Shown here: positions 44,561 to 62,945 of the stretch, in pieces
How positions within the stretch are numbered: position 1 is the first letter of the stretch
How the letters are laid out: each line of letters opens with the position of its first letter
Assembly: GCA_041650935.1 (NCBI GenBank)
Contig: JBAZKH010000009.1
Location: 1 to 62,945 of the forward strand
DNA from: Candidatus Omnitrophota bacterium
GTDB lineage: Bacteria; Omnitrophota; Gorgyraeia; 2-01-FULL-45-10
Length of the DNA: 62,945 nt
Direction: 5' to 3'
Position numbers and translations under genes: made by a program
Notes under the pieces: model-generated
What the model was told of the DNA's origin: nothing
Seen by the model: only the letters and a program-made list of their open reading frames with translations
The model's database searches: none

Positions 44561-46690
44561 TTAACGGCTTGACGATACCATGATCACATTCGAATATTCG
44601 GAGTATCCCGTCTCGCTGATGGCGCGTACCCTGTAATATTGTTTTCTATTGCGATTAACGCCGTAATCATAAAATGATGTTACATTTGCACATGCTTGAT
44701 TGATCTCCTGAAAATTTTTATTGTCGCGGCTTCTTTCCAGAACAAACCCCGTTTCATTATTCGAATTATCTTTCCAGCGTAATATGTTACAAGATGGTCC
44801 CGGAATTCCGACCAGATTCGATGGTGCTATAGGCCGCAGTCTTTTTTTAGCGCTTACTTCATTTGAGTACTGGGATTCTCCCGCGTTATTATAAGCGCAC
44901 ACTTTATAATAACATGTCGTATCCGTACCGTTTGTATCGCCATACCCCTCATCTTTATAGTGTGTTACATTACGAGGTACGGCAGCGATCTGGATATATG
45001 TGCCCGCCGCGCCCGCTTTTCTATATATCCTGAATTCGGTTTCGTCATTCGAGTTATCTTCCCAGGCTAGTTTCTTTCCGGTTATGCGTAGTCTTGACGG
45101 CGCAACGGGCGGATTACCCGTAAAAGTGATGCTTGCCGAATAAACCTGCGACCAATTGCCGCTTGCATCTTTGAACTTTACGTAGACGATTTTCCGTCCG
45201 GCTCCCTCCGAAAGTTTCCATGATTGGGTTCCGGCGTATGCCTGGTATGACCAGGATGAGCCGTCATTCGAAAGCGCCATCCCCTTGTCGCCGATGCCGT
45301 TTGTATCGGCGGCTGATAGAGTTAATACAACATCTCGTGAGGTTGTGCTGCCGCTACCCCCATTTATCTTTATCGTACCTGTGGGAGGCGTGGTGTCGGG
45401 GACAATCTTGATACTTGCCGAATAAACCTGCGACCAGTTACCCGCCGCATCCTTGAACTGCACACAGATGGTATGCTGTACGCCCGCTACAAACCTGACC
45501 GATCTTATTCCGGCATATGCCTCGGGCATCTGACTGTCGCCGTCGAAGGAGAAACGCATCTGGCTTACTCCGCTTCCCGCATCAAAGGCCGATAGATTTA
45601 ATACGAGCTTCTGTGAGTCTGTATTGCCGCTACCCCCATTTATCTTTATCGTGCCTGTGGGAGGCGTGGTATCCAGTATGATCTTTGCCGAACAGGATAC
45701 CCAGTGCCCCTTTTGATCCTTAGCCATAGCGTATACAGTCTTTACGCCATCACCCGAGGTTAGGTTCCATGTTATCGGTGATGTATAGAAGAAGTAGGTT
45801 TGGTTCGGCCAGTTTACGTTGTCGTTTGACAATTTTATTCTCGTAGGCTCCTCGCCGTAACCTAAGGTTAACTTGACGGTCTGGCAAGGCGTAGCCGCCG
45901 CGTCGCTGTTAATGTGTAGTGAATATTCAGACGGAACTTCATAACTCGGCTTACTCCAATAACCCGCTATCGGGACCTGGTCTTTGTTAAAGCCGTATTG
46001 GAAAGTCAGGTCCGCGTCTCCGCTAGTATTAGAGTACCTGAGGTAGAAGACGAAATTCTGAGGGTCGTATAAACCGACTGTGCTGGTTCCATTATCGTTC
46101 CAGCATCCGGCTAACGGGATCCAGCCTGCCCCCGCCGGACCGTATACGAATGTGATATCGGCCGTTCCGCCGGCATTGGAATTCTTTAAAAAGAAGGTGG
46201 ATGTTTTTGGGTCATACAGGCCTATAGTATCGATGCCGTCGCCATCCCAGTCTCCGGCTAACGGGATCCAGCCTGCTTTTTTTGCGCCGTATACGAACTT
46301 GATATCGGTACAACTATTTTCTTCATTGGCGTTACCGAGATAGAAGGTAGCCATTTTAGGATCATACAAGCCCATAGTATCGATGCCGTCGCCATCCCAG
46401 TCTCCGGCTAACGGGGTTCTGATTCCTTCCAGATCTATGTAATCCAGGCGGCTTGACAATGAGAAATCCATTTCATTCACATAGCCGTCACCGTTGACCC
46501 TCTTTAAATAGAAGCGCGATCCCGGAACATGCCCCGGATTATACAAACCGACGTCGCCCGCAGGTTTTTTTTGAATATCCGATGACGATGTTGCCGCCAG
46601 GGCGTCAGTCGTTACAAATAAAAAACTTAATAAAAGTATTAAGGAAAGGGACAAAAAAATGCCGCATTTAAGAATCGTATCTGTTTTCAT
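44561..46690 (-). CDS. large secreted repeat protein (FG-GAP/VCBS-like repeats, two Ig-like modules, two Fn3-like modules)
   Basis: 709 aa with a signal peptide. PLAGDWDGDGIDT-GLYDP occurs three times (plus one degenerate copy), DTTPPTGTIKINGGSG twice, and two C-terminal W-x-DNS-ET-F Fn3-like units. Confidence 0.8.
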   Translation of the reverse strand: MKTDTILKCGIFLSLSLILLLSFLFVTTDALAATSSSDIQKKPAGDVGLYNPGHVPGSRFYLKRVNGDGYVNEMDFSLSSRLDYIDLEGIRTPLAGDWDGDGIDTMGLYDPKMATFYLGNANEENSCTDIKFVYGAKKAGWIPLAGDWDGDGIDTIGLYDPKTSTFFLKNSNAGGTADITFVYGPAGAGWIPLAGCWNDNGTSTVGLYDPQNFVFYLRYSNTSGDADLTFQYGFNKDQVPIAGYWSKPSYEVPSEYSLHINSDAAATPCQTVKLTLGYGEEPTRIKLSNDNVNWPNQTYFFYTSPITWNLTSGDGVKTVYAMAKDQKGHWVSCSAKIILDTTPPTGTIKINGGSGNTDSQKLVLNLSAFDAGSGVSQMRFSFDGDSQMPEAYAGIRSVRFVAGVQHTICVQFKDAAGNWSQVYSASIKIVPDTTPPTGTIKINGGSGSTTSRDVVLTLSAADTNGIGDKGMALSNDGSSWSYQAYAGTQSWKLSEGAGRKIVYVKFKDASGNWSQVYSASITFTGNPPVAPSRLRITGKKLAWEDNSNDETEFRIYRKAGAAGTYIQIAAVPRNVTHYKDEGYGDTNGTDTTCYYKVCAYNNAGESQYSNEVSAKKRLRPIAPSNLVGIPGPSCNILRWKDNSNNETGFVLERSRDNKNFQEINQACANVTSFYDYGVNRNRKQYYRVRAISETGYSEYSNVIMVSSSR

Positions 46691-54258: not shown

Positions 54259-54335
54259 GTGCCTGTAGCTCAGTTGGATAGAGTACCTGGCTACGAACCA
54301 GGTGGTCGCAGGTTCGAATCCTGCCAGGCACGCCA
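54259..54335 (+). tRNA. tRNA-Arg (anticodon ACG), CCA encoded
   Basis: Acceptor GTGCCTG/CAGGCAC, anticodon stem CCTGG/CCAGG with loop CTACGAA, T-loop TTCGAAT. Confidence 0.93.
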
Positions 54336-54823: not shown

Positions 54824-55396
54824 ATGACGAAAAACGTTTATATAATCGCTGGGCCGAACGGATCGGGTAAAACAACATTTGCGACTATGTTTTTGCCTGA
54901 TTATGTTAAGTGCCCGAACTTTGTGAATGCCGACCTGATCGCTCAAGGGCTGGCGCCGTTTGAACCTCGTAGTGCGGCCATTAAGGCTGGGAAGCTTGTT
55001 CTGCAGCAAATTCATGAATTTGCTGAACACGGTGTTGATTTTGCTTTTGAAACAACGCTATCCGGGAAATCTTATGTAAATCTACTTTCCGCGTTAAAGG
55101 CGAAAGGTTATGGGCTGCATTTGTTTTTCTTATGGATTCCCAGTCCGGAATTGGCAATAGAACGTATTAAAGATAGGGTAAGAGAGGGTGGGCATAATGT
55201 GCCTGCCGAAGACGTCCGACGCCGGTTTATCCGCGGTATCAATAATTTTTTTAAATTGTATGAGTCATTGTTTGACACCTGGACGTTGTTCGATAATTCC
55301 AGGGCAAAACCTGTATTGATAGCGAAGAGAAAAAATGGCCACAAGGAATTTAACAATGAAGAATTGTTCAAAATGATACAAAAAGGCGCGAGGTAA
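54824..55396 (+). CDS. zeta-toxin-family P-loop kinase-like protein
   Basis: 190 aa with Walker A IIAGPNGSGKTTF, FVNADLIA and ETTLSG, as in zeta/PezT-like and related AAA kinases. Confidence 0.8.
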   Translation: MTKNVYIIAGPNGSGKTTFATMFLPDYVKCPNFVNADLIAQGLAPFEPRSAAIKAGKLVLQQIHEFAEHGVDFAFETTLSGKSYVNLLSALKAKGYGLHLFFLWIPSPELAIERIKDRVREGGHNVPAEDVRRRFIRGINNFFKLYESLFDTWTLFDNSRAKPVLIAKRKNGHKEFNNEELFKMIQKGAR

Positions 55397-55399
55397 CAA

Positions 55400-55552
55400 A
55401 TGAAAAAAAGAATGTCTTTACAAGATAAAGCCGAAGCGGCACTAAAGAAGGCGGTGAGGCAGGTTGTGGAACGGCATAAAAAAACCGGCCGTTCACTTGC
55501 CGTATGGCAGAACGGTAAAACCGTTCGTATCTCTCCAAATACAGTTAGGTAG
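55400..55552 (+). CDS. small basic protein (50 aa), possible partner of the zeta-like kinase
   Basis: MKKRMSLQDKAEAALKKAVRQVVERHKKTGRSLAVWQNGKTVRISPNTVR. ATG lies 3 nt after the kinase stop. It is below the ORF-track cut-off. Confidence 0.4.
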   Translation: MKKRMSLQDKAEAALKKAVRQVVERHKKTGRSLAVWQNGKTVRISPNTVR

Positions 55553-55817: not shown

Positions 55818-56075
55818 ATGTATTACGTTTATGTCTTATTGAGCGAGAAAGATAAAAACTTTTATATAGGGTTTACTGAGAATATAGAGCAGCGTCTCGA
55901 CGAGCATAATGCCGGTAATAATGTAAGTACCAGATCAAGACGGCCCTTTAGCCTTATATATTACGAAGGTCATGCTTCAAAATCCGATACTTTGCGGAGA
56001 GAGGGATATTTTAAGACTTCAAAAGGCAAGACGACTCTGAGGCAGATTCTGAAAGACGCATTATCAAAAAAATAA
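55818..56075 (+). CDS. small GIY-YIG nuclease-domain protein (catalytic domain only)
   Basis: 85 aa with YYVYVLLSEKDKNFYIGFT, RLDEHN and a conserved Glu in RREGYFK. Confidence 0.8.
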   Translation: MYYVYVLLSEKDKNFYIGFTENIEQRLDEHNAGNNVSTRSRRPFSLIYYEGHASKSDTLRREGYFKTSKGKTTLRQILKDALSKK

Positions 56076-56406: not shown

Positions 56407-56874
56407 TTACTTCAGCGCGTCGACCTTGACGGAGAATTTCGTACCGCGGACACCGACTACAGAGGTAGGGGTCTTCACTTCGAACTTCGAATCGGGCGTG
56501 TCCAATTTTTCCGCTTTGATAAGGACCTGTCCGATAGATAAATCTAGCAGGGTCTTCTTCATTCCCGTCGTGCTGTCTTTTACAAGCGTAGCGAACGAGA
56601 CGAGAGATTTTTCGCTTACATCGACGATAGCGGTCTTGCTGTCACCATCCACATTTACTACGGCCTTTGAGCGGGGGCCTGTCTTGATAAAAAAACCTTC
56701 ATTTAATTGATCGCCAACCTTTGCCGGAGCCCACGCGCCCGGGCCGGCGCCTTTTACCATTACCTCGCCGCTTATTTCGCTGATCGCGGCCGTACGCTTT
56801 AACTCCGCCGAAAAAGAGACGGACGCGATGAGCGCTATCAATGCCGTTACACATAATGTATTGGATATCCGCAT
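56407..56874 (-). CDS. FecR-domain secreted protein
   Basis: 155 aa from MRISNTL with a signal peptide. It shows the GEVMVKG...W.PAKVGDQL.EG..I.TG..S.A pattern of the FecR domain. Confidence 0.75.
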   Translation of the reverse strand: MRISNTLCVTALIALIASVSFSAELKRTAAISEISGEVMVKGAGPGAWAPAKVGDQLNEGFFIKTGPRSKAVVNVDGDSKTAIVDVSEKSLVSFATLVKDSTTGMKKTLLDLSIGQVLIKAEKLDTPDSKFEVKTPTSVVGVRGTKFSVKVDALK

Positions 56875-56932
56875 ATTTTGCACCTCGTTGTAAATATACA
56901 GCAGGAATACAAAAAAGTCAAGCCAACCCATT

Positions 56933-57167: not shown

Positions 57168-57328
57168 TTACTGAAGGAGAGTGCGGTTAGACATGAAAAA
57201 GCTAGATCTAAGGCATTGTATTACGTTAAATATATGATATACTTCTGTTAGACCAATGAACGAGAGCATTTCATTGGATATTTTTTGAGCGATTAATAAA
57301 CGTCTTTAAAAAGTTGCAGGTGATAATT

Positions 57329-57745
57329 ATGAATGCTCAAAAAATAATAATGCCTATAGCGGTAATTATTCTGACGGCTATACTTTTATTCGGAGACAAA
57401 CCCCTGGCTACCGCTATCGTAAGCCATGACGGCACAAGAATTATTACAAAGGCGGGCGTCGCAAGTTACTATTCCTATGAATGTGCCGATCTCCCCATGG
57501 CAAATGGAAAGCCGTTCGATCCCGAAAAAAGAACTTGCGCGAGCTGGTTCTATAAATTTGGTACGGTCCTTATCGTTAGGAGCCTCGATACGGGCAGGAC
57601 GACAAAGGTAGTAGTGACCGATAGGGGGCCGAACAAGAGGCTCGTCAAAGAAGGCAGGATCATCGACCTCTCCAAGAGAGCTTTTCAGGATATCTGCGGT
57701 CTGGAAAAGGGCCTTACAAGGGTCGTTGTCGCGGTTAAAAAGTGA
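57329..57745 (+). CDS. rlpA: RlpA-family (double-psi beta-barrel) lytic transglycosylase-like protein
   Basis: 138 aa with GVASYYS...MANGKPFD...CASW...GT...V....GRT..V.VTDRGP. AGGTGA SD lies 5 nt before ATG 57329. No SPOR domain. Confidence 0.8.
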   Translation: MNAQKIIMPIAVIILTAILLFGDKPLATAIVSHDGTRIITKAGVASYYSYECADLPMANGKPFDPEKRTCASWFYKFGTVLIVRSLDTGRTTKVVVTDRGPNKRLVKEGRIIDLSKRAFQDICGLEKGLTRVVVAVKK

Positions 57746-57921
57746 TTTTTCCCTCCAGGATCTTCATTTCATCTTCATTTCGACTTCCGCTTGACTTCCA
57801 CTCAATTTATGGTGTAAAATAAAATACAAATTAGATAAGATAGTCCCTTGCGCGCGGGACTTAAATAGCGGCGTCTCGGGATGGTTTGTCCGCAGTAAAC
57901 AATAACAAATCAGAGGATTAT

Positions 57922-58242
57922 ATGCTCGATTCAGGCCTTGCCAACATTACCATGTTTTTTGTGATCATAGGAATAAGCCTTATCTTCGTCGTTGCCTGGA
58001 TAATCAAATCGGAAGCGCGGATAAATGCGTGCAAAGACGAAGCAAGAAAGCTTAAGAATGATCTCGAAGCCTCGGAAAGAGAACGCTTCGTTCTTTCGGA
58101 GAAGATCGCTAACGCCGTTGCGATGAGCGTGCCGGTAGATGACGGGGCTATTGTCGCGCTCAAAGAAGAGAATAAGAGGCTGAAGAAAGAACTTTCGGAG
58201 GCGCGGTCCTCACTGGAAGAAGTCTACAAGGCCCTCAGTTAA
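57922..58242 (+). CDS. bitopic coiled-coil protein (FtsB/DivIC-like architecture)
   Basis: 106 aa from ATG 57922 (GAGGA SD). One N-terminal TM segment followed by a heptad-rich K/E/L segment. Confidence 0.55.
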   Translation: MLDSGLANITMFFVIIGISLIFVVAWIIKSEARINACKDEARKLKNDLEASERERFVLSEKIANAVAMSVPVDDGAIVALKEENKRLKKELSEARSSLEEVYKALS

Positions 58243-58256
58243 AGACGAAATTAAAG

Positions 58257-59876
58257 ATGGAAATAAGCGAAATAAAAAAGAAGATAATGGAGAGGATCGA
58301 AGACGAAAAGTCCAAGACCTCCCGCAAGAAGAAGCCTCTCACGCTGGACAGCCTGTCCGCCAAGATAGGAAAACCCAAAGAAGAGCTCCTCAGGATCCTT
58401 AATAAGACCGATGACGAGCCAGCCGTATCTCTTGAGCCGGTAGTTCCGGTTAAGAGCGACGCTGTCCCCGGAGAAGCCGAAGGTTACCAGGTAAGGCTCG
58501 AGAACCTCGAAGAAGAGAACCTCAAACTTAAGAAGGTTAAGGAGGAAGCGCGCTTCAAGAGCGATAACCTTCTGAACCAGATAGCGGAGAAGGATAAAGC
58601 AATAGCCGACCTGCAAAAAAAGCTTGCCAGCGAATCGATAAGTATCATTAAAGACAGCGAAAAAGAAAAATCTCTCATAAATACGGCAATAGAAAAATCT
58701 ATCGCGGAATACCGCGCCAAGCTTGCGGATCTCGAGGAGGAGAATAGTAAGCTTAAGGACCGGCATGCCGCGGAATCGAAGAATAACGAAGATATATTCT
58801 TCCAGATAGCGGAGAAGGATAAGGAGATAGCCGCGCTGAAAAAGAAGTTCCAGGAAGAGGCCGGCGAGCTTGAGAAGACCAAGAAACTGAAGAAACTGCA
58901 TGAGGACGCGCTGAAGCAGAACGACAGCCTGCTGATACGGCTGGAAGAGAAAGATAAAGAACTGGTGGTCCTCGAGAAGAGGCTGGAGGAAGCGCACGGT
59001 CATACTAAGAAGGCTAAAGACAGCGAAAAGTCGCTCGAGGAAAAACTGGCGGAGAAAGAGAAGGCCGCATCGAACGTCGAGGGCCTGAGGTCTAAAATAT
59101 ACGCGGCCACTAAAGAGATCAAGGAACAAGCCGCGCGTATCCTGCAGCTGGAAGAGATGGTGAAGAACAGGGAGAAGAAATTTGCGGAGAGCGACAAGGC
59201 GCTTAAGAAGACGGAGAAGGAAAGAGACGACCTAATCGTAAAGCTCCAGGCATCGGAAGAGTCGAGGAGGTCGATGGACGAGAAGATTAAGAATATCAGT
59301 GTCGAGATAGAAGCGAAAGATAAGAAAGTAACCGAGGCGGAAAAATTCTATAATAAGAATATGTCGGTTGCTAAGAAAGAGATGGAACTCCACGTGCAGG
59401 CCATCGAAAGGTCGAAGAAGACGCTCGAAGGCAAGATAGCTCAGCTTAATATAGAACTCGACGCGAAGAATAAGAGGATAGAGGAGACGGAGGAGTCCAA
59501 CAGGGAACTCGATAACCTGGTAAAAGAGTCGGCCGTGAAGCTGCAGAGTATCGAAGGCGCAAAGGGCGACATAGAAGAGAGGCTCAAGCAGATCGAAGTC
59601 GAGCTTACGAAGATGGTTACGGTACGTCAGAATGACAAGGCCGCCGCCGAGGAGAATATCACAACGCTCAAGTCCGAAATGGAAGCGCTTGCTACCGTTA
59701 TAAAAGACAAGGAAAAGTGCGAAGAAGAGCTTAAGGATAATGTCATGCGTCTAGAGGCGGAGATCGAAGCGCGCGACAAGAAGATACAGTCGGATATAAA
59801 ATATTGCGAAGGCGTCGTAAAGGAAGTAAACGACCTCAGACAAAAGATAAAGGCTTATCGCCTTAAAGTGAAATAG
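58257..59876 (+). CDS. 539-aa K/E-rich coiled-coil protein with a basic N-terminal peptide
   Basis: Almost uninterrupted heptad character. N-terminus MEISEIKKKIMERIEDEKSKTSRKKKP. Motif QIAEKDK(A/E)IA(D/A)L(Q/K)KK occurs twice. Confidence 0.75.
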   Translation: MEISEIKKKIMERIEDEKSKTSRKKKPLTLDSLSAKIGKPKEELLRILNKTDDEPAVSLEPVVPVKSDAVPGEAEGYQVRLENLEEENLKLKKVKEEARFKSDNLLNQIAEKDKAIADLQKKLASESISIIKDSEKEKSLINTAIEKSIAEYRAKLADLEEENSKLKDRHAAESKNNEDIFFQIAEKDKEIAALKKKFQEEAGELEKTKKLKKLHEDALKQNDSLLIRLEEKDKELVVLEKRLEEAHGHTKKAKDSEKSLEEKLAEKEKAASNVEGLRSKIYAATKEIKEQAARILQLEEMVKNREKKFAESDKALKKTEKERDDLIVKLQASEESRRSMDEKIKNISVEIEAKDKKVTEAEKFYNKNMSVAKKEMELHVQAIERSKKTLEGKIAQLNIELDAKNKRIEETEESNRELDNLVKESAVKLQSIEGAKGDIEERLKQIEVELTKMVTVRQNDKAAAEENITTLKSEMEALATVIKDKEKCEEELKDNVMRLEAEIEARDKKIQSDIKYCEGVVKEVNDLRQKIKAYRLKVK

Positions 59877-60697
59877 TGACAACGACCTCTGCCAAGCGAC
59901 AGCTGTTCCTGAATTATAAAGGCGGTACCGGGAAGACGAGCATATCTTCCGCATATGGTTACTGTCTCGCCCATATGGGCAAACGCGTACTGATGATAGA
60001 CCTCGACGCTCAGGCGCATCTTACCACATGCCTGAACCAGGAGGGGTTATACCAGGACAAGAGCCTTTACAGCATCATGGTAGGCGGCGGCGATATAACC
60101 GATATTATAAGGCCCACATCACTTGCTTCGATGAAATTGATCCCGTCATCTCTTTCTCTTTCCGCCCTCGAAGTCCCGCTCTTTAAGATGCACCTGAGGG
60201 AATTCAGACTGCGGCAGATACTTAAGAGCGTAGAAAAAGATTTTGATTATATTATCATCGATTCCGCGCCGAGTATAAACCTGTTGAGCCTGAACGCTAT
60301 CCTCGCCTCCAACGAAATATTGATACCGCTCCTGGCCGACTTCCTTTCGTTCCACGGTCTCAAGATACTTATGGAGACGCTCGCCTCTATCGAGAAAGAC
60401 TTTAACTTTTACCTCGGCAAGATACATATATTCCTGAACCGCTTCAACCCGCAGTATCCCATATGCGGCGAGTGTAAAGAAGCCGTCCATAAGTTCTATC
60501 CGGACTATGCTCTTCAAACCGCTATAAGCGAATCGCACGAAATCATTGATGCCTCCAGCATGGGAAAGTCCGTCTTCGAACTGCACCCCGAGTCGAAAGT
60601 CGCCTCGGATATAATGGACCTGGTATACGAAGTCAATAAGGAAAATTTAGACGAAACAGTCAAAAAGGGAGGCTTAAGCAATGAAGGAAAAATTTGA
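59876..60697 (+). CDS. ParA/MinD-family P-loop ATPase (orphan)
   Basis: 273 aa with deviant Walker A NYKGGTGKTS, MIDLDAQ and Walker B YIIIDSAPS. The GTG start shares one base with the TAG stop of the upstream coiled-coil gene. Confidence 0.88.
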   Translation: MTTTSAKRQLFLNYKGGTGKTSISSAYGYCLAHMGKRVLMIDLDAQAHLTTCLNQEGLYQDKSLYSIMVGGGDITDIIRPTSLASMKLIPSSLSLSALEVPLFKMHLREFRLRQILKSVEKDFDYIIIDSAPSINLLSLNAILASNEILIPLLADFLSFHGLKILMETLASIEKDFNFYLGKIHIFLNRFNPQYPICGECKEAVHKFYPDYALQTAISESHEIIDASSMGKSVFELHPESKVASDIMDLVYEVNKENLDETVKKGGLSNEGKI

Positions 60698-61256
60698 AGC
60701 CAATGTGGCAACGGAGATACCAAAGACCAAATTGCACGAGCCGGTATTGCCATGGAAGCTGACGCAGGATGAGGTGGCCCAGATCGGCCCCCAGGACGAT
60801 GAATTAAAGATCGCTATGACGGGAGCATCGCCGCTTAAAACGCGGGCGCCGTTTCTTATAGCGCTTATCGTCGCAATTTTTGTCCTGACCGCCTACCTGA
60901 TATTGAACGCGGCTATGGAGAACGAGCGGATGCGCGGTAATATTGCAAGGAAGGACGGAGAACTCTCTCTCGCGCAGATAAATGTGATGAAAGCCCTTGC
61001 CGAGAAAGATGCCGTCAATAAAAGTTCCTCACAACTGGAAAAAAAGATCAGTGACCTGACCGCGCAAAAACAACTTTTCGCCAGCGTAATAGAAAGCCTG
61101 ACAAAGAAAGGCGAGGATATAGATACGCCTGCGCCCGCGAGTATTTTGATCAATAACCCCGCCGGCAGCGCGGCCGGCGATAGCGCTATTCCTGCGCCTG
61201 CTCCCGGCGAGACATCGCCCGCGGCCGATACCACCGGCGCCGGCGCTGCAAACTAA
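60681..61256 (+). CDS. bitopic protein with coiled coil and Pro/Ala-rich tail
   Basis: 191 aa. GGGAGG SD inside the ATPase 3' end (17-nt overlap). Central TM segment APFLIALIVAIFVLTAYLILNAA, then a coiled coil and a PAPAPGETSPAAD tail. Confidence 0.65.
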   Translation: MKEKFEANVATEIPKTKLHEPVLPWKLTQDEVAQIGPQDDELKIAMTGASPLKTRAPFLIALIVAIFVLTAYLILNAAMENERMRGNIARKDGELSLAQINVMKALAEKDAVNKSSSQLEKKISDLTAQKQLFASVIESLTKKGEDIDTPAPASILINNPAGSAAGDSAIPAPAPGETSPAADTTGAGAAN

Positions 61257-61269
61257 CGAGAAAATCTAT

Positions 61270-62945
61270 ATGCGGAAGCGCTTGGTACTTTCGGCTATTC
61301 TCGTATTTCTTGCTCCTCAAATATCCGCCCAGGAAGAAGCCTTCTACCAGCTAAACCAGAAGATGGCGGAGTCTGCCCGCCAGGGTAGATACGAAGAGTC
61401 GCTCTCCTTCGCCAAAAAAGCCGTCGAGACGGCAAAAAAAGAATTCGGCCCGTATCACGATAATGTGGTAGCAATGCTTAATAGCGTCGCGGATATTTAT
61501 GTTTCGCAGGGAAAATATTCCAGGGCCGAGAGCGTTCTTAAACGCGTGCTGGCCTTAAGGACGCTTACGATAAATGACGAGCTTTTGTCCAAGAATTACG
61601 CCGATATAGCCGCGGCGATGCGCAGGCTCGCGAAACTTTACATGGAGGCGAAAAAATACTCAAGGGCCGAGCGGATGTTGAAGCGCGCCATGAAGATGGA
61701 CGAGACCGCGCGCGGCGCAGACTACCCCGATAAGGCTTCGGATATGAATCTCCTCATAACTCTATGCGAACTTCAAAATAAGTCCGAGGCGGCGGCCCCT
61801 CTCTATCAGACACTGCTCAAAGGTTATGAAGTATCCGGTACCGGAGATAGCGTCTCTTCGGCAGTTGCGGCCAATAATCTAGCCAAGATATACATGGAGA
61901 ATAAGAGATTTAAAGAGGCCGAGACGCTGCTTAAAAAAGCGCTCGATATTAACGAAAAGAATCATCTTCCGACCGACCGGACCGTAGCGATATCTTTGAA
62001 TAACCTCGCCACCGTCTACACAAACGAAGGCAAGTATTCCGAAGCGGAACCGCTATTGGTAAGGGCGCTCGATATCGACGAGAAGAGGTTCGGCAAAGAC
62101 TCTCCCGACATAGTAACCGACCTCAATAACCTCGCCACCGTCTATTCATACCAGAATAAGTACGCGGACTCCGAGGCCTTATACAGGAGAATGCTCGATA
62201 TACATGCGGCGGCTGCGGTGCCCGACGATAAAGAGATCGCTAAAGCCCTTAACAGCCTGGCGGTTACTTATTCGTACCAGAAGAGATATGCGGATGCGGA
62301 GCCGGTCCTTACCAAAGCGTTGGAGTTGACCCAAAGTGCATACGGACCGGACGCGCCGGCAACCGCCCTGGCCCTGAATAATCTCGCAGCAGCGTATTTA
62401 TCACAGGCCAAATATGATTCTGCCGAGCTTTTGTTTAAGAAGGCCCTGCAGATAGCGGAAAAGTATCTACCGGAACAATCCATGATAGCAGCAACGTCTC
62501 TGAGGAACCTGGGCTCGATATACGAATCCCAGGGTAAATATCCCGAGGCGGAAGATTTCTATGTGAAGATGGTCGACCTCTATAACAAGGTCCTCGACAA
62601 GAATTCGCCGGAGCTTGCGCTCGCTTCAAACGACCTGGCGAGAATTTACATAGCCGAAAAGAAATATGCCGAAGCGGAATCTCTCTTGAGGCGCTCTCTC
62701 GAGATAACAGAACACAACCAGGGACCCGACCACCGTAACGTATCCATATATCTCAATAACCTCGCCACCGTCTACACAAACGAAGGCAAGTATTCCGAAG
62801 CGGAACCGCTATTGGTAAGGGCGCTCGATATCGACGAGAAGAGGTTCGGCAAAGACTCTCCCGACATAGTAACCGACCTCAATAACCTCGCCACCGTCTA
62901 TTCATACCAGAATAAGTACGCGGACTCCGAGGCCTTATACAGGAG
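61270..62945 (+). CDS. TPR (TPR_12/kinesin-light-chain-type) repeat protein, 3'-truncated by the window end
   Basis: Signal peptide MRKRLVLSAILVFLAPQISAQE followed by at least 12 units of 42 aa (LNNLA.VY...GKY.EAEPL..RAL.I). I read the frame by hand and it stays open to the last base. It is absent from the ORF track because it has no stop codon. Confidence 0.85.
   Translation, partial: MRKRLVLSAILVFLAPQISAQEEAFYQLNQKMAESARQGRYEESLSFAKKAVETAKKEFGPYHDNVVAMLNSVADIYVSQGKYSRAESVLKRVLALRTLTINDELLSKNYADIAAAMRRLAKLYMEAKKYSRAERMLKRAMKMDETARGADYPDKASDMNLLITLCELQNKSEAAAPLYQTLLKGYEVSGTGDSVSSAVAANNLAKIYMENKRFKEAETLLKKALDINEKNHLPTDRTVAISLNNLATVYTNEGKYSEAEPLLVRALDIDEKRFGKDSPDIVTDLNNLATVYSYQNKYADSEALYRRMLDIHAAAAVPDDKEIAKALNSLAVTYSYQKRYADAEPVLTKALELTQSAYGPDAPATALALNNLAAAYLSQAKYDSAELLFKKALQIAEKYLPEQSMIAATSLRNLGSIYESQGKYPEAEDFYVKMVDLYNKVLDKNSPELALASNDLARIYIAEKKYAEAESLLRRSLEITEHNQGPDHRNVSIYLNNLATVYTNEGKYSEAEPLLVRALDIDEKRFGKDSPDIVTDLNNLATVYSYQNKYADSEALYR
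61999..62189 (+). repeat. 191-bp exact direct repeat, copy 1 (inside the TPR gene)
   Basis: Identical by eye to 62755-62945. The 756-bp offset equals 6 TPR units of 42 aa. Confidence 0.9.
62755..62945 (+). repeat. 191-bp exact direct repeat, copy 2 (runs into the window end)
   Basis: Identical by eye to 61999-62189. The window ends exactly inside the repeat. Confidence 0.9.

Follow-up and report, generated by a model that had tools for sequence, protein, structure and literature searches.

We analysed a 62,945-nt stretch of DNA from a Candidatus Omnitrophota bacterium (contig JBAZKH010000009.1 of assembly GCA_041650935.1, positions 1 to 62,945; hereafter, the window) and identified at its end an operon of five genes, g1 to g5, which is probably a distant, rewired and membrane-spanning relative of the PomX/PomY/PomZ system of Myxococcus. 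All five genes lie on the plus strand: g1 (57922-58242) encodes an inner-membrane protein of 106 aa, in which a transmembrane (TM) segment at residues 9-27 is followed by a predicted cytoplasmic coiled coil; g2 (58257-59876) encodes a coiled-coil protein of 539 aa; g3 (59876-60697), with a GTG start, encodes a PomZ-like ParA/MinD ATPase of 273 aa; g4 (60681-61256) encodes a bitopic inner-membrane protein of 191 aa; and g5 (61270-62945 onward) encodes a secreted TPR_12 repeat protein, which is incomplete at the contig end.

To our knowledge, PomXYZ is the only ParA/MinD system with two activators. It positions and stimulates the FtsZ ring at midcell, and the Pom papers describe it as conserved in myxobacteria (PMC7993993; bioRxiv 10.1101/2025.12.01.691545). 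In our literature search, no paper was found that links PomZ to Omnitrophota or Riflebacteria, and ParA, ParB, MinD and FtsZ all go unmentioned in some Omnitrophota genome papers. Members of the Omnitrophota are uncultured, ultra-small and possibly host-dependent cells. An earlier note on this DNA had described g3 as an 'orphan' ATPase in an arrangement that its author did not recognise; neither description now holds, since g3 groups with PomZ and has a PomX-like partner, and the order of the genes mirrors that of pomY-pomZ-pomX.

Placement of the g3 ATPase in the PomZ lineage

The activating peptide of PomX was reconstructed from the mutagenesis primers in PMC7993993, and metagenomes were then scanned for its coding pattern. 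PomX orthologs, with a GC content near 0.7, accounted for 21 of the 22 matches, and the sequence of the peptide (NPEP, MKKAFEQNVSRAKPRLRLGALT) was confirmed in these 21. At the pomX loci, a gene for a ParA-like ATPase was located directly upstream of pomX, and pomY was located upstream of the ATPase gene. The ATPase of one such locus (L063) carries K61, G62, K66, D90 and K268, as well as 20 of 21 contact residues, at the published numbers (bioRxiv 10.1101/2025.12.01.691545), the sole exception being D for E at position 248, where the other 17 orthologs have E. Because the published residues sit at exactly the published numbers, we identified the L063 ATPase as PomZ.

Motifs and alignments place g3 in the PomZ lineage of ParA/MinD ATPases, with its catalytic residues intact. 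It was assigned to Pfam AAA_31 (E 3e-45, 154.7 bits against a cut-off of 27) and to CbiA (53.6 bits against 25.4). For comparison, we used the window together with nine other Omnitrophota loci, ten loci in all, which were searched by tblastn with all window proteins; gene tables were prepared for six of the relatives (L001, L003, L005, L046, L047 and L048). The signature lysine K15, G16, the P-loop lysine K20 and D44 are present in all ten Omnitrophota orthologs, and g3 carries the sequence KGGTGKT and the motifs QLFLNYKGGTGKT and LADFLSFHGLKILMET. In tblastn comparisons with PomZ from 18 Myxococcota-like loci, g3 showed 40-45% identity with scores of 210-231 bits, compared with at most 34% identity and at most 153 bits for Bacillus Soj and 107 bits for M. 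xanthus ParA (8RAY). The mean core identity of the Omnitrophota ATPases was 0.43 to PomZ and 0.31 to Soj and generic ParA; it was 0.24 to what we take to be the sequence of E. coli MinD. In an exhaustive phmmer search of 1.84 billion representatives, one Omnitrophota protein scored 383 bits, about 12 proteins, including PomZ-type ones, scored 176-237 bits, and the remainder scored 160 bits or less. In neighbour-joining bootstraps, the Omnitrophota ATPases were monophyletic in 88% and PomZ in 95%, and the two together were separated from all Soj, generic ParA and MinD sequences in 60% of the bootstraps.

Among the curated NCBIfam models for partition proteins, MinD and BcsQ, none reached its cut-off for g3: the scores were 80.8 for ParA_partition (cut-off 180), 96.2 for RepA (348), 48.6 for SopA (725), 47 for MinD TIGR01968 (213) and 55 for BcsQ (158). 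Among solved structures, 8RAY, 6IUB and 1WCV gave the best matches to g3; the match to M. xanthus ParA (8RAY) had an E value of 1e-29, and Soj of H. pylori was another of the closest solved relatives. Outside the ATPase core, the C-terminal tails of the Omnitrophota proteins are variable in length and sequence and carry no membrane-targeting helix, and the N-terminal extension of approximately 50 aa found in PomZ is absent from them. This extension (MEAPTYSSKQVAEMLGVSPKAI...DIWELRATL), seen in the PomZ encoded at 5185-6144 of L063 and in the other PomZ orthologs of L049-L070, resembles a small helix-turn-helix segment; a segment of g2 after its N-terminal helix, L.L..LS.K.GKP.EE.L..L, is vaguely similar to it.

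Partner pockets and DNA-binding patch of g3

The PomZ residues predicted to contact the PomX peptide and helix alpha5 of PomY, as well as K268, have been reported (bioRxiv 10.1101/2025.12.01.691545), and we analysed the equivalent positions in g3 (PomZ numbering). Of the 13 PomZ residues predicted to form the pocket for the PomX peptide, 10-11 were kept in g3: F202, F205, E219, E248, A249, Y254, Y257 and S274 are identical, and V229, L242 and E256 are conservatively replaced. The changed residues are Q271, replaced by D, and E275, replaced by M or V. Soj differs at most of the pocket positions, with L at F205, Q or K at E219, E at A249, F at Y254 and K at Y257. In the pocket for PomY-alpha5, five of the eight residues were kept in g3, namely, L139 (R in Soj), L182, L185, L210 (D or Q in Soj) and D221 (A in Soj).

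The residues associated with DNA binding gave a different picture from the partner pockets. The position of PomZ K268, which is equivalent to R218 of Soj and R238 of M. xanthus ParA (MxParA), is occupied by E or D in all ten Omnitrophota ATPases, and the position of R189 of B. subtilis Soj is occupied by Q, D or E, again in ten of ten. In MxParA, the substitution R238E abolished DNA binding (PMC12462528). At the positions of PomZ K241, K244 and R264 (195, 198 and 218 in the window protein), the Omnitrophota ATPases have P, G or S, and N or S, respectively, with R at 218 kept in three of the ten. Near the former DNA patch, the Omnitrophota ATPases have conserved basic residues of their own, R189, K201 and K206.

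PomX-like termini in g4 and g1

Neither g1, g2 nor g4 gave a Pfam or NCBIfam match above threshold; the partner proteins were compared with the Pom proteins by profile alignment. The start of g4, MKEKFEANVATEIPKTKL, matches the activating peptide of PomX, MKKAFEQNVSRAKPRLRL, and the relatives of g4 begin with MKKKFESNVATEIPKTKL. These 18 N-terminal residues (60681-60734, plus strand) constitute a putative, PomX-NPEP-like ATPase-activating peptide. In hhalign, residues 1-18 of g4 aligned with residues 1-18 of PomX at 50% identity (P 4.6e-4), the agreements being M1, K2, F5, E6, N8, V9, P14, K15 (equivalent to R15), K17 and L18; the basic residues R15 and R17 of PomX are thereby kept as K15 and K/R17. 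The C-terminus of g1, ELSEARSSLEEVYKALS, matches that of PomX, ELLEARKALEAVHRALS, with an hhalign P of 1e-3. As an empirical control, the termini of 800 open reading frames (ORFs) from the window and seven Omnitrophota loci were scored in the same manner. Against the PomX peptide, the top seven N-termini were the seven g4 orthologs, which scored 35-45, followed by a next score of 22 and a background of -9 ± 9.6. Against the C-terminal core of PomX, the top eight C-termini were the eight g1 orthologs, with scores of 35-44, and the next score was again 22.

The predicted membrane topology brings these two termini to the same side of the membrane. In g4, a cytoplasmic tail containing the NPEP-like peptide and a conserved EPxLPWK motif is followed by a TM segment at approximately residues 57-79 (60849-60917), and beyond it by a periplasmic coiled coil, which ends with LEKKISDLTAQKQLFASVIESLTKKGED, and a variable Pro/Ala-rich tail. 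The flanking charges predict an N-in/C-out orientation for g4 (10 orthologs) and an N-out/C-in orientation for g1 (9 orthologs); both PomX-like pieces are therefore predicted to be cytoplasmic, and the coiled coil of g4 to be periplasmic. As g4 carries the NPEP-like peptide and g1 the C-terminal motif, these alignments make PomX appear split across two inner-membrane proteins. The two are not detectable paralogs of each other (hhalign P 0.02), and g4 showed nothing in common with PomY (hhalign P 0.11).

An FtsB/DivIC-like architecture had previously been proposed for g1. We rejected g1 as a homolog of these proteins: the DivIC model scored 18.1 bits, below its threshold of 28.9, and the topology is opposite, as FtsB, DivIC and FtsL are N-in bitopic proteins with a periplasmic leucine-zipper coiled coil, whereas g1 is predicted to be oriented N-out/C-in and has a C-terminus matching that of PomX.

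The long coiled-coil protein g2 begins with a conserved, basic, amphipathic helix (MEISEIKKKIMERIE) in a ten-member alignment, and the pattern [ML][ED][IV]SEIK[KR][KR]I[ML]EKIE is conserved in the nine orthologs for which the N-terminus is available. Conservation is also seen in a central block (EKEKAASNVEGLRSKIYAATKE...) and at the C-terminus (RDKKIQSDIKYCE...LRQKIK). Profile searches with g2 gave weak, sub-threshold coiled-coil matches only, and its similarity to the coiled coil of PomX was marginal (hhalign P 4.8e-4). In the earlier note, the basic N-terminus of g2 was set beside known activating peptides; this needs correction, as the match to such a peptide was found on g4, not on g2, although the g2 helix is indeed basic and conserved.

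Operon organization and conservation in Omnitrophota

The five same-strand, translationally coupled ORFs with tiny gaps or overlaps, as described before, were confirmed from the ORFs and the gene junctions. The ATG of g1 at 57922 is preceded by a GAGGA Shine-Dalgarno sequence and agrees with the N-termini of homologs, and the upstream in-frame TTG at 57886 is a less likely start. The G at 59876 is common to the TAG stop of g2 and the GTG start of g3. The ATG of g4 at 60681 lies 17 nt within g3 and is preceded by the Shine-Dalgarno sequence GGGAGG at 60667-60672; both this overlap and the base shared by g2 and g3 were read directly in the sequence, as previously noted. The gap between the stop of g4 and the start of g5 is 13 nt. 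No convincing plus-strand terminator was found within the cluster.

All nine of the other Omnitrophota loci have the genes g1, g2, ATPase, g4 and TPR in this order, with no change of strand; the arrangement is therefore more than chance, and the linkage of coiled-coil and ATPase genes, the lack of which in relatives would have spoken against the candidate system of the earlier note, was present throughout. Identity to the window proteins across the nine loci was 66-85% for g3, 40-69% for g1, 29-60% for g2, 40-70% for g4 and 38-69% for g5. More than 120 clusters (at the 90% identity level) contained relatives 67-89% identical to the window g3, and the named homologs were all Candidatus Omnitrophota. 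For g4, 73 homologous clusters were found, and the named ones were likewise all Omnitrophota. An exact-sequence look-up of the window g3 returned no record. A scan of contigs based on narrow peptide patterns recovered only four Omnitrophota loci and generic Soj sequences; these were used as outgroups, and the scan is uninformative on prevalence. Taken with the predicted topologies, the conservation in nine of nine relatives bears out the view of a conserved ParA/MinD-type system with operon-like organization that reaches from the cytoplasm through the membrane into the periplasm.

The genes expected next to other ParA/MinD-type ATPases were sought in the same loci. Searches with tblastn (E<=1) of the window and the nine related loci detected no ParB and no second ParA. 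No Min, Flh, Bcs or Tad genes were found among the ten upstream genes scanned, and the gene tables of the related loci likewise contain no Bcs, Tad or Flh genes, in agreement with the earlier observation that partners of these kinds are lacking. It had also been considered that the usual partners of a characterised subfamily might sit just past the end of the contig. The six gene tables show none of these classical partners there; in each, g5 is followed on the same strand by genes for a ROK protein, a Cys-rich protein of 116-120 aa and an OEP-MFP-RND block. The Cys-rich protein is highly conserved (MAEE.IC.ICGKPFLPNKYRPNQ.ICSSLECQYQRQL...). The efflux block is set off from the operon by intergenic gaps, and in two loci the gene of an RlpA-like protein with a DPBB domain intervenes.

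Eight of the ten loci have a homolog of this RlpA-like gene beside the operon. In six of them it lies upstream, whereas in L001 and L048 it lies downstream of g5, so that its linkage to the operon has outlived a rearrangement. In the window, the gene (57314-57745, plus strand) lies upstream of g1 and outside the coupled operon, and encodes a protein of 143 aa with an N-terminal hydrophobic segment. Its identification as rlpA-like is upheld by the match to DPBB_1 (E 7.6e-13, 49 bits against a cut-off of 28.8). The score for TIGR00413 rlpA was 44 bits, below the cut-off of 82, and a SPOR domain was not detected.

PomZ-like ATPases in other lineages

Four members of the PomZ-like tier from outside Omnitrophota were examined, in L071, L073, L074 and a Ca. 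Riflebacteria metagenome-assembled genome (GCA_015233155.1, L072). The ATPases of these four lineages are 39-47% identical to g3, and several of them are acidic at the K268 site. In the Riflebacteria genome, the ATPase is preceded by a soluble protein of 289 aa, which starts with MNNRFDRTLPKKIPKL and ends with ...EDLEEVRQAILS; in L071, L073 and L074, the ATPase is followed by a small coiled-coil protein with related N- and C-termini. The partners in all four lineages have an N-terminus of the form M-x-x-x-[FY]-[DE], a coiled coil and a PomX-like C-terminal motif. Pairs resembling PomZ and PomX therefore reach well beyond Myxococcota. Compared with Omnitrophota, the partners in these lineages are soluble single proteins with no TM segments, the genes for g2, g5 and the RlpA-like protein are not alongside, and some of the ATPases have Lys-rich N-terminal extensions.

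The ATPases closest to g3 outside Omnitrophota, at 45-47% identity, are those of L071 (6001-7755) and L073 (4484-5728) (P0194, P0195 and P0198). They carry a fused, extremely Lys-rich N-terminal extension of 150-330 aa and a coiled coil, and their C-terminal tail, ILKFIFE.LFY.GG.KW, is conserved; the next gene after that of the partner is uvrC; the lineage is an uncharacterised one of low GC content. In the Riflebacteria genome (L072, 7087-10123, minus strand), the pair lies beside two large proteins with a coiled-coil repeat of approximately 35 aa (...NENEIKELREK.K.KE.E..RL.G...E....L...).

Comparison with known systems

Of the characterised proteins, PomZ is the closest relative of g3, and the motifs QLFLN[FY]KGGTGKT and LADFLSFHGLK.L.ET are common to both. 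The order of a coiled-coil gene, an ATPase gene and an activating-peptide gene corresponds to pomY-pomZ-pomX, the gene directly after g3 starts with a PomX-like peptide, and the C-terminal motif of PomX is present on g1. The two systems also differ in several respects. PomX is a single soluble protein composed of NPEP, an Ala/Pro-rich linker and a self-assembling C-terminal coiled coil, whereas g4 and g1 both have TM segments. PomY has no counterpart here: besides a coiled coil, it contains HEAT repeats, a winged helix-turn-helix domain and a disordered region that includes helix alpha5, whereas g2 is pure coiled coil. The ATPase g3 is without K268, most of the other basic patch residues and the N-terminal extension; the Omnitrophota add a secreted TPR protein as well as linkage to an RlpA-like gene; and the host does not belong to Myxococcota.

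With MinD and MinE, the operon has in common the ParA/MinD fold, what would be a membrane site of action, and a putative activator peptide that is predicted, by analogy with PomX-NPEP, to bind at the MinE site of the dimer cleft. Unlike MinD, g3 has no C-terminal amphipathic membrane-targeting helix, no MinC or MinE is encoded nearby, and the membrane attachment is on the partners. Soj of the Soj-ParB system has the same fold and deviant Walker A motif as g3, but its identity to g3 is approximately 31%, no ParB/parS is present at the loci, and both conserved DNA-binding arginines are absent from g3. Readings of the operon as a MamA/magnetosome, BY-kinase, BcsQ, TadZ or FlhG system were rejected on scores and context.

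Proposed mechanism and alternative explanations

Based on these comparisons, we propose that ATP-bound dimers of g3 would dock on the membrane-tethered peptide of g4, and that stimulated hydrolysis would free them. The cycle would take place on a membrane-anchored scaffold of g1 and the long coiled coil g2, not on the nucleoid. The C-terminal domain of PomX self-assembles (PMC7993993), and g1 and g2 may form a membrane-attached coiled-coil scaffold in a like manner. The basic N-terminal helix of g2 could be a second partner site, as PomY is for PomZ. The periplasmic coiled coil of g4 would link this cytoplasmic cycle to the TPR protein g5, of approximately 900 aa, and to the RlpA-like wall enzyme, and the job of the system would be the placing or timing of envelope or peptidoglycan remodelling at the division site or pole. 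A role in division or wall remodelling is our best guess; Omnitrophota keep the dcw and FtsZ genes (PMC12283558).

More tentatively, and with clearly less confidence than in the relationship to PomXYZ itself, we consider that the operon may represent a new architectural class, in which the ATPase cycles on membrane-embedded partners, so that its matrix is neither the nucleoid nor the membrane by way of its own helix, and in which cytoplasmic hydrolysis is coupled to a periplasmic TPR scaffold and a wall-cleaving enzyme. Such a trans-envelope device for positioning or division might be an ancestor of PomXYZ or a parallel to it, and might occur throughout the phylum Omnitrophota. The results suggest an old age and a wide distribution for both the PomZ lineage and the PomX-type activating peptide, and further that the peptide is a portable module which can be grafted onto a membrane protein, and that a natural variant of the ATPase exists which has lost the canonical DNA-binding patch. 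The ParA/MinD field would thereby gain a system in which exchange of the 'matrix' can be tested directly. For Omnitrophota, the operon is a first candidate for a lineage-specific cell-organisation machine, and it is also relevant to the cell biology of the Planctomycetes-Verrucomicrobia-Chlamydiae (PVC) group.

Several of our results weigh against a membrane-spanning relative of PomXYZ. The short terminal motifs gave modest hhalign P values, 1e-3 to 5e-4, and the bootstrap value of 60% for the PomZ-like superclade is moderate. In g4, the position of K13, one of the two essential basic residues of PomX (K13 and R15), is I or L; it is a matter of speculation that this change and that of PomZ E275 to M or V in g3 are a compensating pair. 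No similarity between g2 and PomY was detected (hhalign P 0.86), and the assignment of the cargo draws only on the homology to PomXYZ and the linkage of the RlpA-like gene. DNA binding by g3 is unlikely from its sequence, yet still conceivable, because R189, K201 and K206 remain near the patch. If g3 did bind the nucleoid through these alternative basic residues, the operon would encode a true nucleoid ratchet in the style of PomXYZ, in which the chromosome would set the position of the membrane-anchored complex of g4, g1 and g2, for instance above the nucleoid at midcell, as with the PomXY cluster. The homology to PomZ and PomX and the position of the three conserved residues adjoining the former DNA patch fit this explanation, but we regard it as rather unlikely, as every patch position that is basic in Soj or PomZ carries an acidic or neutral residue in the majority, if not all, of the ten orthologs, with E or D at the K268 site of every one, and as g3 is without the N-terminal extension of PomZ. 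It is far less probable still that g3 is an ordinary chromosome or plasmid partition ParA of the Soj type, with ParB/parS encoded elsewhere and flanking genes that are merely syntenic. This would agree with the best PDB matches, which are chromosomal ParA/Soj proteins, and with the label 'chromosome partitioning protein' given to homologs by JGI. Set against it are the scores of all NCBIfam partition models far below cut-off, the loss of both DNA-binding arginines of Soj, the lack of ParB in the window and the nine loci, the start and stop codons that overlap neighbouring genes, and the conservation of partner pockets specific to PomZ.

An assembly or localisation ATPase of the static kind, such as BcsQ, TadZ or FlhG, could be imagined to serve another envelope machine, for example, the ROK-OEP-MFP-RND block or a secretion system. 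The block, with the Cys-rich protein, does follow g5 in the six related loci with gene tables reaching that far, weak BcsQ matches were obtained, and the TPR protein in the periplasm resembles BcsC or TadD in kind. We nevertheless consider this explanation improbable: none of the loci showed Bcs, Tad or Flh genes, and intergenic gaps, together with the DPBB gene in two loci, lie between the operon and the efflux block. The full catalytic set of g3 and the presence of a putative activating-peptide partner favour a hydrolysis cycle over a static ATPase. As to which partner activates that cycle, the basic N-terminus of g2 might be the sole ATPase-activating peptide and g4 a mere membrane adaptor, since the g2 helix is basic and conserved in nine orthologs and the stop of g2 overlaps the start of g3. 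This, too, is improbable, because the helix of g2 is unlike any known activating peptide, PomX NPEP finds its match in the N-terminus of g4 and g3 retains the corresponding pocket, and in the four other lineages a gene with an NPEP-like start adjoins the ATPase gene with no g2-like gene recognised beside it.

Regulatory signals, neighbouring genes and the contig end

A candidate sigma-70-like promoter was located upstream of g1 at 57791-57820 (plus strand; TTGACT-18-TAAAAT, 10 of 12 consensus positions), between the RlpA-like gene and the operon. It is a consensus match only, and the number of such sites in this region is not above the shuffle expectation.

Upstream of the RlpA-like gene, a divergent gene (56407-56931, minus strand) encodes a secreted FecR-domain protein with LipL45-like matches, and its position is kept in L003 and L047. 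Further upstream, the segment 54259-56075 starts with tRNA-Arg (54259-54335), after which come a gene for a Zeta-toxin-like protein (54824-55396), a small overlapping ORF at 55400-55552 and, at 55818-56075, a GIY-YIG gene. In the syntenic loci L003 and L047, a tRNA_bind gene leads directly to the FecR and DPBB genes, without the Zeta-toxin-like/GIY-YIG segment, and the segment in the window looks like a small toxin-antitoxin or mobile insertion beside a tRNA. At a greater distance, an ORF of 709 aa (44561-46690, minus strand) with no Pfam match at E<=1e-5 is flanked by a MacB-type efflux operon and by the gene of a CitMHS transporter.

Both the signal peptide and the TPR_12 repeats reported for g5 were recovered, the former being of the Sec type and the latter matching Pfam TPR_12 with E 6e-108. 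Full-length orthologs of g5 have 863-937 aa and a signal peptide. The internal units of g5 are long and recently duplicated: within the window, the gene contains a direct repeat of 248 nt (61942-62189 and 62698-62945, plus strand), of which the last 191 nt are identical. This exact copy of an earlier TPR unit is the reason why the contig ends at 62945. In the g5 ortholog of L003 (11314-13926), a stretch of approximately 150 aa is likewise repeated exactly, which suggests that the repeats of g5 are under concerted evolution.

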